Source: Naegleria gruberi (lineage: Eukaryota). Taken from it: 1,054 nt of DNA. This document shows, piece by piece, positions 2 to 1,054 of the stretch (its first letter is position 1; each line of letters starts with the position of its first letter). The stretch lies in assembly GCA_000004985.1 (NCBI GenBank), contig GG739592.1. One strand, 5' to 3'. The position numbers and the translations under genes are program-made. The notes beneath the pieces are model-generated. The model ran no database searches and had not been told where the DNA came from. It saw only the letters and a list, made by a program, of their open reading frames with translations.

Positions 2-439
2 GTCATGTTCGAGCCGGGCCGCTCGGTGGTCGGCAATGCCGGCCTGCTGCTGACCGAGGTGCAATACCTCAAGCATGGTGAAGAAAAGAACTTCGCCGTG
101 GTCGATGCCGCCATGAACGATCTGATGCGTCCGGCCATGTACGAAGCCTGGCATGGCGTGCAGACCGTGAAGGAAAACGCCGGCCAGCCCCGCATCTACG
201 ACGTGGTCGGGCCGGTGTGTGAATCCGGCGACTGGCTGGCCCGCTCGCGCGAACTGGCCATCCACGAGGGCGACCTGCTGGCCCTGATGTCGGCCGGTGC
301 CTACGGCATGACCATGGCCTCCAACTACAACACCCGTGGCCGTGCGGCCGAAGTACTGGTCGATGGCAGCCAGGTCCACCTGGTCCGTGCCCGTGAAAAT
401 CCGGCCGACCTGTTCGCGCTGGAAAAGATCGTGGACTGA
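2..439 (+). CDS. lysA: Diaminopimelate decarboxylase (last step of lysine biosynthesis), C-terminal ~145 aa; 5'-partial, the gene starts upstream of the window
   Basis: The reading frame is open from position 2; the ATG at 5 is internal. The stop codon TGA is at 437-439. The translation contains the conserved C-terminal beta-sandwich region of LysA-family decarboxylases: YDVVGPVCESGDWLA, GAYGMTMASNYNTRGRAAEVLVDG and HLVRARENPADLFALE. These are colinear with the E. coli LysA C-terminus, AGAYG..SNYN.R...EVL.D....L.R.R.T..EL. Third codon positions are strongly G/C-biased, consistent with a real coding frame in a high-GC genome. The match is from recalled family knowledge, not a database search. 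Confidence 0.88.
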   Translation, partial: VMFEPGRSVVGNAGLLLTEVQYLKHGEEKNFAVVDAAMNDLMRPAMYEAWHGVQTVKENAGQPRIYDVVGPVCESGDWLARSRELAIHEGDLLALMSAGAYGMTMASNYNTRGRAAEVLVDGSQVHLVRARENPADLFALEKIVD

Positions 440-462
440 AGCGGGTTATTGTCAGTCTGCCA

Positions 463-502
463 AGCGGCAGTCCCGGAAACGGGGCTGCCGTTTCCTTTTG
501 TG
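463..502 (+). terminator. Rho-independent (intrinsic) terminator of lysA
   Basis: Seen directly in the sequence. The left arm GGCAGTCCCG (466-475) pairs with the right arm CGGGGCTGCC (480-489), 10 bp with one G-U wobble. The loop is GAAA (476-479), a GNRA tetraloop. The stem can extend to 463-475/480-492. It is immediately followed by the T-rich tract GTTTCCTTTTGTG (490-502). It lies 24-26 nt downstream of the lysA stop codon. Confidence 0.7.
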
Positions 503-534: not shown

Positions 535-587
535 CAAGTCCCGCTTGGCTTGGCTGCAGATATTTTTTGCAGAGCCGCATTTTTGTT

Positions 588-615
588 TTGCCTTTCAGAA
601 ATTTCGGCGCAAAAT
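588..615 (+). promoter_or_regulatory. Weak candidate sigma70-type promoter for the downstream ORF: TTGCCT, 16-nt spacer, CAAAAT
   Basis: The AT-rich core of the intergenic region is 555-650. TTGCCT at 588-593 matches TTGACA at 4 of 6 positions. After a 16-nt spacer, CAAAAT at 610-615 matches TATAAT at 4 of 6. The conserved first T of the -10 is missing, so this is weak. No better -35/-10 pair was found by eye. Confidence 0.15.
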
Positions 616-753
616 AGCCATCCGTCCGAAAAACAACCGAAGCATCAGAACATGCCTGGGGGCAGAGCTGCCCGCAACGCGAGACCTGGCAAGCATTCAC
701 GGACGTGAGGGAGCACATCAGGGCCACCGGGACGGCGGTCGCTAGCGTAATAC

Positions 754-759
754 AGGGGA
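754..759 (+). promoter_or_regulatory. Shine-Dalgarno ribosome-binding site for the ORF starting at 766
   Basis: AGGGGA at 754-759 is purine-rich and complementary to the anti-SD CCUCC with one wobble. A 6-nt spacer, ATTCCA, separates it from ATG 766-768. Confidence 0.5.
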
Positions 760-765
760 ATTCCA

Positions 766-1054
766 ATGCAAGTTCTGGAACGGTCAGAGGGAGATCGCGA
801 CCGTCGCGTCGCCAGCGAGGGCGTGGCGCAGGCCGGCCATGGCGATCCGTCCGGCCAGCTCATACACAGCAGTCAGTCCAGTCACGCCAGCCAGTCGCCG
901 GCACCGGCGCGCGCTGCGTCCGTGCAGCCTGACCTGAGCGAAGAGGAACTGGAAGTCCGGGCCTCGCACATCACGGCTGCCGCTGTTGCCGCAGCCGCCG
1001 TCACGGCGGCGGTGGCCACCTCGGCCGGCACCGCCAGCCTGCCGTATGAAGACA
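766..1054 (+). CDS. Hypothetical protein, 3'-partial, at least 96 aa with no stop before the window end. Low-complexity, charged, Ser/Gln-rich N-terminus, then an Ala/Val-rich hydrophobic segment; possible bitopic membrane protein
   Basis: Not in the supplied ORF track, which seems to report only stop-terminated ORFs. Frame 1 is closed by TAA at 748-750. The first start codon is ATG 766, with an SD 6 nt upstream. The frame is then open to position 1054. It is the only + frame with no stop across 766-1054: frame 0 stops at 930-932 and frame 2 at 935-937. G/C at third codon positions is about 75-80%. Translation: MQVLERSEGDRDRRVASEGVAQAGHGDPSGQLIHSSQSSHASQSPAPARAASVQPDLSEEELEVRASHITAAAVAAAAVTAAVATSAGTASLPYED... 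Its composition, Ala/Ser-rich with few Arg after the N-terminus, is protein-like. The perfectly antisense frame gives an Arg/Gly-rich product typical of a non-coding frame. Confidence 0.5.
   Translation, partial: MQVLERSEGDRDRRVASEGVAQAGHGDPSGQLIHSSQSSHASQSPAPARAASVQPDLSEEELEVRASHITAAAVAAAAVTAAVATSAGTASLPYED

Follow-up and report, generated by a model that had tools for sequence, protein, structure and literature searches.

The question raised by this 1,054-nucleotide (nt) stretch of contig GG739592.1, filed under Naegleria gruberi and called the window below, lies at its right-hand edge. Downstream of lysA, an open reading frame (ORF) begins with an ATG at position 766 and is still open at 1054, where the stretch ends. 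An earlier note, made from the letters of the window, had taken this ORF for an unannotated gene for a low-complexity, possibly membrane-anchored protein whose defining domain lay beyond the edge. Is this a gene, and what does it encode? An exact-match scan placed the whole window in Herbaspirillum huttiense subsp. huttiense LMG2199 (contig NZ_JBDHMT010000012.1), where the ORF can be followed to its end. We find that it is a real protein-coding gene, conserved in Herbaspirillum, whose product is a lineage-specific variant of an uncharacterised membrane-protein family. Positions 766–1054 would encode the N-terminal, probably cytoplasmic, part of a 315-residue single-pass inner-membrane protein; to this picture as a whole, including topology, disulfides and a role as a tether, we give a probability of roughly 0.6. 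All positions are in window numbering unless a locus is named.

The open reading frame is a conserved Herbaspirillum gene

Two features of the window define the start and extent of the gene.

754–759, plus strand: Shine-Dalgarno sequence AGGGGA, read from the sequence, six nt 5′ of ATG 766
766–1054, plus strand: first 96 codons of a 315-codon gene, which runs on in the H. huttiense locus L001 from 5241 down to 4294, minus strand

The start codon is ATG 766–768, and an in-frame TAA at 748–750 means that no earlier start is possible. Between 766 and 1054 this is the single stop-free frame of the plus strand, the remaining two ending at 930–932 and 935–937. The earlier note had rested its case on this sole open frame and on the correctly spaced AGGGGA, and both observations hold, as does its translation: the segments ERSEGDRDRR, DLSEEELEV and ITAAAVAAAAVTAAVATSAGTASL (nt 970–1041) are all present. 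At the Shine-Dalgarno site, ACAGGGGA is kept in all core Herbaspirillum loci and GGGGAAGGGAA is aligned there in H. lusitanum. The ortholog alignment shows no variation at M1 and R11 and at least 90% conservation at Q2, L4 and R6, while the region 5′ of the ATG sits in differing frames among strains. Together, the conserved N-terminal residues, the conserved Shine-Dalgarno sequence and ATG, and the frame-shifting sequence upstream of them support a start at ATG 766; two database entries have N-terminal extensions that are ruled out by the TAA at 748–750 of the window.

Extending the contig downstream, a check that the earlier note had proposed, revealed no early stop after 1054. The ORF continues for 219 more codons, giving a 315-residue product (L001 4294–5241, minus strand) with the C-terminus QCSTLSVFARESCLWKLCDGKWGKNGCPSYERNNEGA.

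Homology searches found 44 homologous protein clusters, and all those with an organism name are from Herbaspirillum. The gene is not unannotated, since its orthologs are already listed in RefSeq and UniRef under the names ‘phage tail protein’ or ‘hypothetical protein’. Orthologs are ~47% identical overall, and the gene order gspG, cyaY, lptM, lysA, ORF, sodium:solute symporter (SSF) and otsB is fixed in all Herbaspirillum loci with sufficient flanks; a check of this synteny (lysA followed by this gene) had been proposed in the earlier note.

Codon alignments of five Herbaspirillum loci were compared by codon position. The proportion of differences at positions 1–2 against position 3 was 0.105 against 0.555 for residues 59–87, 0.189 against 0.418 for residues 196–257 and 0.136 against 0.342 for residues 273–315; for residues 15–57, positions 1–2 varied nearly like position 3 (0.574 and 0.682). 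That substitutions are concentrated at position 3 of the sense frame shows that selection acts on the sense-frame protein. A real gene downstream of lysA is thus borne out by the homologous clusters, the codon-position bias and the fixed synteny. On one metagenome contig (L015 1–455), similarity to the protein starts at about residue 150, just past the membrane helix described below, and what precedes that point is unrelated. Either the assembly is chimeric here or the allele has been rearranged.

Architecture of the 315-residue protein

The features of the protein were delimited from the ortholog alignment, hydropathy and insertion scales, AlphaFold2 models (confidence given as the predicted local distance difference test, pLDDT) and codon-position differences. 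In order from the N-terminus, they are as follows.

766–807, plus strand: residues 1–14, N-terminal motif MQVLER-x-GEDRDKR, from the ortholog alignment
808–936, plus strand: residues 15–57, variable Ser/Gln/His/Pro/Ala-rich tract with indels, pLDDT below 50
940–1026, plus strand: residues 59–87, acidic cap and Ala/Val/Thr helix EELE(V/I)RASHITAAAVAAAAVTAAVAT, near-invariant
1027–1054, plus strand: start of residues 88–127, variable Pro/Ala-rich spacer leading to the hydrophobic helix
Outside the window: residues 128–152, strongly hydrophobic helix, AlphaFold2 pLDDT ~83
Outside the window: residues 153–195, second variable spacer
Outside the window: residues 196–257, long charged Arg/Glu/Ala helix (~60 residues), pLDDT above 90
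Outside the window: residues 273–315, terminal module QC-x10-C-LW-x2-C-xG-x-WG-x3-CPSY with four invariant Cys

The window encodes the first three of these and the start of the fourth. The Ser/Gln/His/Pro-rich stretch that the earlier note had read as disordered is indeed variable and indel-rich (residues 15–58), and residues 15–57 are probably disordered. The note had also expected the domain that defines the protein to lie outside the window, which it does: this is the four-Cys module at residues 273–315. No Cys occurs in residues 1–279 of the window's protein.

The most constrained segment is the Ala/Val/Thr helix at residues 59–87, which is invariant at L62, A66, S67, T70–A73, A75–A77, V79, T80, V83 and T85, and which AlphaFold2 models as a helix with pLDDT ~56–61. 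The possibility that it is an Ala-rich linker can be set aside, as linkers vary, whereas this segment is near-invariant in proteins that are ~47% identical overall and its synonymous change is saturated. In the window's protein and its nearest relatives, the spacer that follows it (residues 88–127) is rich in Arg.

A four-Cys module at the C-terminus defines a wider family

Of 1.84 billion representatives searched with a profile (E ≤ 1e-3), 172 matched, nearly all of them via profile positions ~250–292 and at the very end of proteins of 200–480 residues. The family motif, C-x10/11-C-x-W-x2-C-x2-3-WG-x3-C-P-(S/A)-Y placed ~15 residues or less from the C-terminus, is found in the window's protein and in 183 of the 189 retrieved sequences, with a Cys spacing of 10/11-4-8 and a usual distance from the C-terminus of 4–14 residues. 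In all, ~170 other protein clusters end in the four-Cys module; the named relatives come from Herbaspirillum, Noviherbaspirillum and Paucimonas and are all annotated as hypothetical.

About one-fifth of the retrieved family members have a zinc-ribbon-like Cys pattern near the N-terminus, and more have miscalled starts. Pfam DZR and Zn_Ribbon_1 matches were obtained at the N-terminus of relatives, as one or two ribbons. This N-terminal zinc ribbon, common but not universal in the family, is absent from the window's protein. Every family member inspected has a single membrane helix, and so, probably, does the window's protein (residues 130–150; AlphaFold2 helix 128–150), with its Ala stretch as a marginal second candidate.

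The module has no named counterpart in the resources searched, by sequence or by fold. Neither the window's protein nor ten relatives, beyond their zinc ribbons, matched Pfam, NCBIfam or PHROG, which agrees with the earlier view that the protein belongs to no characterised family (Pfam and NCBIfam searched at E ≤ 1). A PDB sequence search with the C-terminal profile gave no match at E ≤ 10, a homolog search with a 16-member alignment of distant relatives gave six matches with no informative names, and literature searches turned up nothing on the four-Cys module family. AlphaFold2 predicts the module to be a helix-turn-helix followed by a loop (pLDDT 77).

The membrane anchor probably lies outside the window

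The earlier note had proposed the Ala/Val-rich residues 69–92 as a possible membrane anchor. At full length this segment is outscored: residues 130–150 have the best Kyte-Doolittle 19-residue mean in the protein (2.47) and a Hessa-scale sum of −1.7 kcal/mol, against 1.79 and +2.1 kcal/mol for the Ala/Val stretch (69–87), on which the two simple scales disagree, and the model is more confident of the former helix (pLDDT ~83 versus ~56–61). The membrane anchor is probably formed by residues 128–152 rather than 69–87, and the Ala/Val/Thr helix 59–87 is probably a cytoplasmic helix and a marginal candidate for a membrane helix. At full length the product does resemble the single-pass, N-in membrane protein that had been foreseen, but the placement of its anchor in the window is probably wrong.

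We infer an N-in, C-out topology from the relatives. A zinc ribbon at the N-terminus of a protein with no signal peptide is cytoplasmic, so the four-Cys module on the far side of a single membrane helix should be periplasmic. A signal peptide of the Tat or Sec type, having a long n-region, was considered and rejected, as it would leave the C-terminal module cytoplasmic. Given the periplasmic location suggested for the module, and with no CxxC knuckles among its cysteines, these would form disulfides rather than a zinc site.

The window's protein might instead have two membrane helices, with residues 69–87 pairing with 128–152. The periplasm would then hold the acidic N-tail as well as the C-terminal module, and the Arg-rich residues 88–127 would form a cytoplasmic loop. 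We regard this main rival as unlikely. The Kyte-Doolittle value of the Ala stretch, at 1.79, is above the classical threshold of 1.6; all faces of the Ala helix are invariant, like those of tightly packed membrane helices; and one face of the main membrane helix is small or polar and conserved (S135, T138 and A145). The positive-inside rule would also be satisfied by the 5–6 Arg in the spacer of the window's protein and its close relatives, and by an N-tail that is net acidic, with EELE right before the helix. However, many orthologs have just 2–3 Lys+Arg in this spacer, the Hessa-scale sum makes insertion of the segment alone unlikely, and the arrangement needs the export of a 68-residue N-tail with ~16 charges and no signal peptide. 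AlphaFold2 confidence is low for the Ala helix, and in H. lusitanum the aligned region follows cytoplasmic zinc ribbons and has short Ala-rich runs only.

It is far less probable that the protein is of the RodZ, anti-sigma or SPOR type, N-in and with residues 69–92 as its single anchor. A hydrophobic stretch of ~19–24 residues with a charged N-terminal flank is what such a protein would have, but a far stronger membrane helix lies at 128–152, and were both segments to span the membrane with the N-terminus inside, the four-Cys module would be cytoplasmic, unlike that of the one-helix zinc-ribbon relatives. No helix-turn-helix (HTH), DUF4115, zf-HC2, RskA or SPOR domain was matched, and no sigma-factor gene is adjacent.

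The database label and the antisense frame

We reject as almost certainly wrong the name ‘phage tail protein’ that the orthologs carry in RefSeq and UniRef. Only the label itself speaks for it; against it, no PHROG family matched at E ≤ 1, tblastn against 50,697 phage genome records gave no match, and the chromosomal surroundings of the gene are fixed, consist of housekeeping genes and include no phage genes.

There is a similarly negligible chance that the open frame is a by-product of high G+C, with no gene here or with the coding frame on the antisense strand. GC by codon position in the ORF (0.76, 0.58 and 0.75) is coding-like, and the earlier note had used this bias as evidence for the gene; the pattern is mirrored in the in-register antisense frame, so that composition alone cannot choose the strand, and that antisense frame is itself almost open (1 stop in 948 nt in the source genome). 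The choice is made by the variation, which gathers at sense position 3; this is antisense position 1, and the antisense product is accordingly not conserved. The earlier note had named amino-acid conservation of the antisense frame as evidence that would count against the gene. The antisense frame also has five stops in H. lusitanum, while the sense frame keeps its start codon and Shine-Dalgarno sequence, its length and its C-terminal motif, and together these results rule out antisense coding.

Genomic neighbourhoods of relatives and a proposed role

Family members with zinc ribbons are encoded right after a type II secretion gspD-E-F-C cluster (L008 3716–7050, L013 4688–8014, L030 9–3298 and L012 5297–6921), usually with a PAS-GAF-GGDEF-EAL gene between these genes and the family member. 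In L008 this gene overlaps the family member by 4 nt, and in L030 only the PAS-GAF-GGDEF-EAL gene is inside the examined locus. A second subfamily is recognised by its CKW motif and its ELPYDG repeats (L010 4412–5659, L011 4536–5777 and L035 2119–3345). It always comes after genes for a TPR-Cds6_C and a YkuD (L,D-transpeptidase)-Cds6_C protein, and mazEF and flhD come next in L010 and L011. As a lead only, the neighbours of relatives lean towards the cell envelope and secretion.

An apparently orphan gspG, encoding the major pseudopilin, adjoins cyaY, three genes from the ORF, in all Herbaspirillum loci (L006 3105–3560, for example). Its TIGR01710 score (106 bits; cut-off 88.85) marks it as a genuine gspG, and no other gsp genes were present in the 6–8 kb flanks of the Herbaspirillum loci.

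We propose that the protein probably acts as an envelope tether. Its cytoplasmic part would be an interaction or self-association module, formed by the invariant Ala-rich helix in core Herbaspirillum and by zinc ribbons elsewhere. Flexible spacers and the single membrane helix 128–152 would follow, N-in and C-out, and the charged helix could serve as a TolA-like stalk that holds a small Cys-locked knob off the inner membrane. This knob, the disulfide-locked four-Cys module, might then contact an envelope partner.

Several points weigh against this proposal. The hydropathy of the Ala stretch is above the classical threshold, as noted, and the stretch may be a second membrane helix. Positive-inside counts, made over 15 residues on each side of the main membrane helix, back the N-in orientation weakly (mean Lys+Arg 2.7 before the helix and 2.0 after it), and the C-out placement is taken by homology from the zinc-ribbon relatives. 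The AlphaFold2 model of the four-Cys module is of moderate confidence only. Finally, neighbourhoods differ by subfamily, with no operon partner common to the family.

A wider and decidedly more tentative suggestion is that the protein and its zinc-ribbon relatives might form an undescribed class of periplasm-spanning tethers, in which the knob would dock on an envelope machine and, in core Herbaspirillum, the Ala helix would replace the zinc-ribbon input and have a partner of its own. The type II secretion system is the candidate machine, because relatives stand directly after gspDEFC and the Herbaspirillum gspG is nearby.

For annotation, these results give the gene its correct extent and start and remove the unsupported ‘phage tail protein’ label, and they caution against taking the hydrophobic segment inside the window for the anchor, which it probably is not. 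They also delimit a small four-Cys module, with no Pfam, NCBIfam or PDB counterpart, that ends ~170 clusters from the Oxalobacteraceae (Burkholderiales), and they point to a change of cytoplasmic module specific to this lineage, in which an invariant Ala-rich helix took the place of zinc ribbons. Their value lies in a well-delimited domain of unknown function, not in a new mechanism.

The H. lusitanum ortholog and a proposed loss of zinc ribbons

The syntenic ortholog in H. lusitanum bears on the origin of this cytoplasmic module. It is a 429-residue ORF with a double zinc ribbon at the start codon aligned with the ATG of the window, where it begins MQCVHCAAANRESAKFC; the full ORF opens with MQCVHCAAANRESAKFCLSCG... 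The public gene call starts at 6001 (359 residues), and the ORF reaches back to an ATG at 5791 (L007 5791–7080), an extension that brings in the double zinc ribbon. A relative in N. galbum (L011) likewise seems to begin 5′ of its called start, with MRCQYCGNEKSAAMTCPSCG.

The alignment suggests that core Herbaspirillum lost ancestral cytoplasmic zinc ribbons that the deep-branching H. lusitanum retains. The motif MQVLER-x-GEDRDKR may be what remains, without its cysteines, of the first knuckle of the zinc ribbon (MQCxxCxxEN) found in the wider family. The Ala-helix form is seen in the lysA context only.

H. lusitanum also has two extra genes between the ORF ortholog and the SSF gene (L007 7324–9714). 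One product is a polytopic membrane protein that has a zinc ribbon at its end; the second combines a zinc ribbon at the N-terminus with a single membrane helix. Both are devoid of the four-Cys module.

The locus and the upstream region

The remaining features of the window lie upstream of the ORF.

2–439, plus strand: 3′ end of lysA (diaminopimelate decarboxylase), an ORF with stop TGA 437–439
462–500, plus strand: intrinsic-terminator-like hairpin (462–493) and T-run after lysA
556–635, plus strand: conserved intergenic block with a sigma-70-like promoter candidate, from alignments

The complete lysA encodes 430 residues in L001, and Pfam Orn_DAP_Arg_deC matches were obtained on the orthologous gene. 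Upstream of the ORF, the source contig carries lysA, a small lptM-type gene and a divergent cyaY; downstream of it are the SSF symporter gene and then otsB.

The hairpin after lysA has a 14-bp stem with nine GC pairs, is followed by CCTTTTGTGC and is kept in close relatives, which suggests that the ORF belongs to a transcription unit separate from lysA. An Rfam scan of the window gave sub-threshold matches only, around this terminator, and found no known RNA in the 326-nt spacer between lysA and the ORF. The weak matches are to the small RNA families RF02634 and RF02883 and probably reflect mere terminator resemblance.

Within the conserved block, the promoter candidate consists of a −35 element TTGCCT (588–593), a 16-nt spacer and a −10 element CAAAAT (610–615). 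The spacer contains the palindrome TTTCAGAAA (594–602), which could be an operator. A core, TTTnCCTTT..GAAATTT..GCAnAAT, is invariant or nearly so in six of six loci, H. lusitanum included. The candidate fits 8 of the 12 hexamer positions, and a sigma-70 scan of the window at a threshold of 9 of 12 reported no promoter; the block may nevertheless function as one. A sigma-54 promoter at 547–571 was rejected, as its GG–GC spacing is wrong and the site is not conserved. From the terminator-like hairpin and the promoter-like block together, the ORF is probably its own transcription unit, with a predicted 5′ leader of ~140 nt.

Comparison with known systems

TolA is similar in its plan, with an anchor at the N-terminus, a long helical stalk in the periplasm that is rich in Ala, Glu, Lys and Arg, and a small domain at the C-terminus, and one relative matches the TolA model TIGR02794 weakly and by composition (E 7.5e-4, 18.8 bits against a cut-off of 59.45). 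The window's protein itself, however, has no Pfam or NCBIfam match and no TolA C-terminal domain, its gene has no tolQ, tolR, tolB or pal neighbours, and its anchor is without an SHLS-type motif. A TonB/TolA SHLS motif in the Ala helix was also considered and rejected, the spacing being wrong.

RodZ and the anti-sigma factors are likewise N-in single-pass proteins, in which a module at the N-terminus lies in the cytoplasm, a spacer is disordered and the C-terminal domain lies in the periplasm. The resemblance to these and to SPOR proteins that the earlier note had raised survives as one of architecture; the domains that define them were not matched. Unlike RodZ, the window's protein has neither an HTH domain nor DUF4115 (Pfam and NCBIfam, E ≤ 1). 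Unlike anti-sigma factors of the ZAS/RskA type, it has no zf-HC2 or RskA domain, and the neighbours of its gene are lysA and the SSF gene, with no extracytoplasmic function (ECF) sigma-factor gene. Unlike SPOR proteins, it has no SPOR domain (PF05036) in the Pfam search.

The C-terminal module, for its part, recalls the disulfide hairpins of saposin-like and twin-CX9C proteins, being likewise predicted as a helix-turn-helix with Cys at the helix ends, here followed by a Cys-bearing loop; saposin D is among its best Foldseek matches.

The zinc-ribbon relatives from the Oxalobacteraceae and related metagenomes differ from the window's protein at the N-terminus, where the latter has the MQVLER motif and the invariant Ala helix, a helix restricted to core Herbaspirillum, and in context, the window's gene following lysA whereas theirs follow gspDEFC, PAS-GGDEF-EAL or YkuD genes. 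With the window's protein they share the C-terminal module, a single membrane helix that has WW or W at its end and, ahead of the module, a charged helix and Pro/Ala spacers of low complexity.

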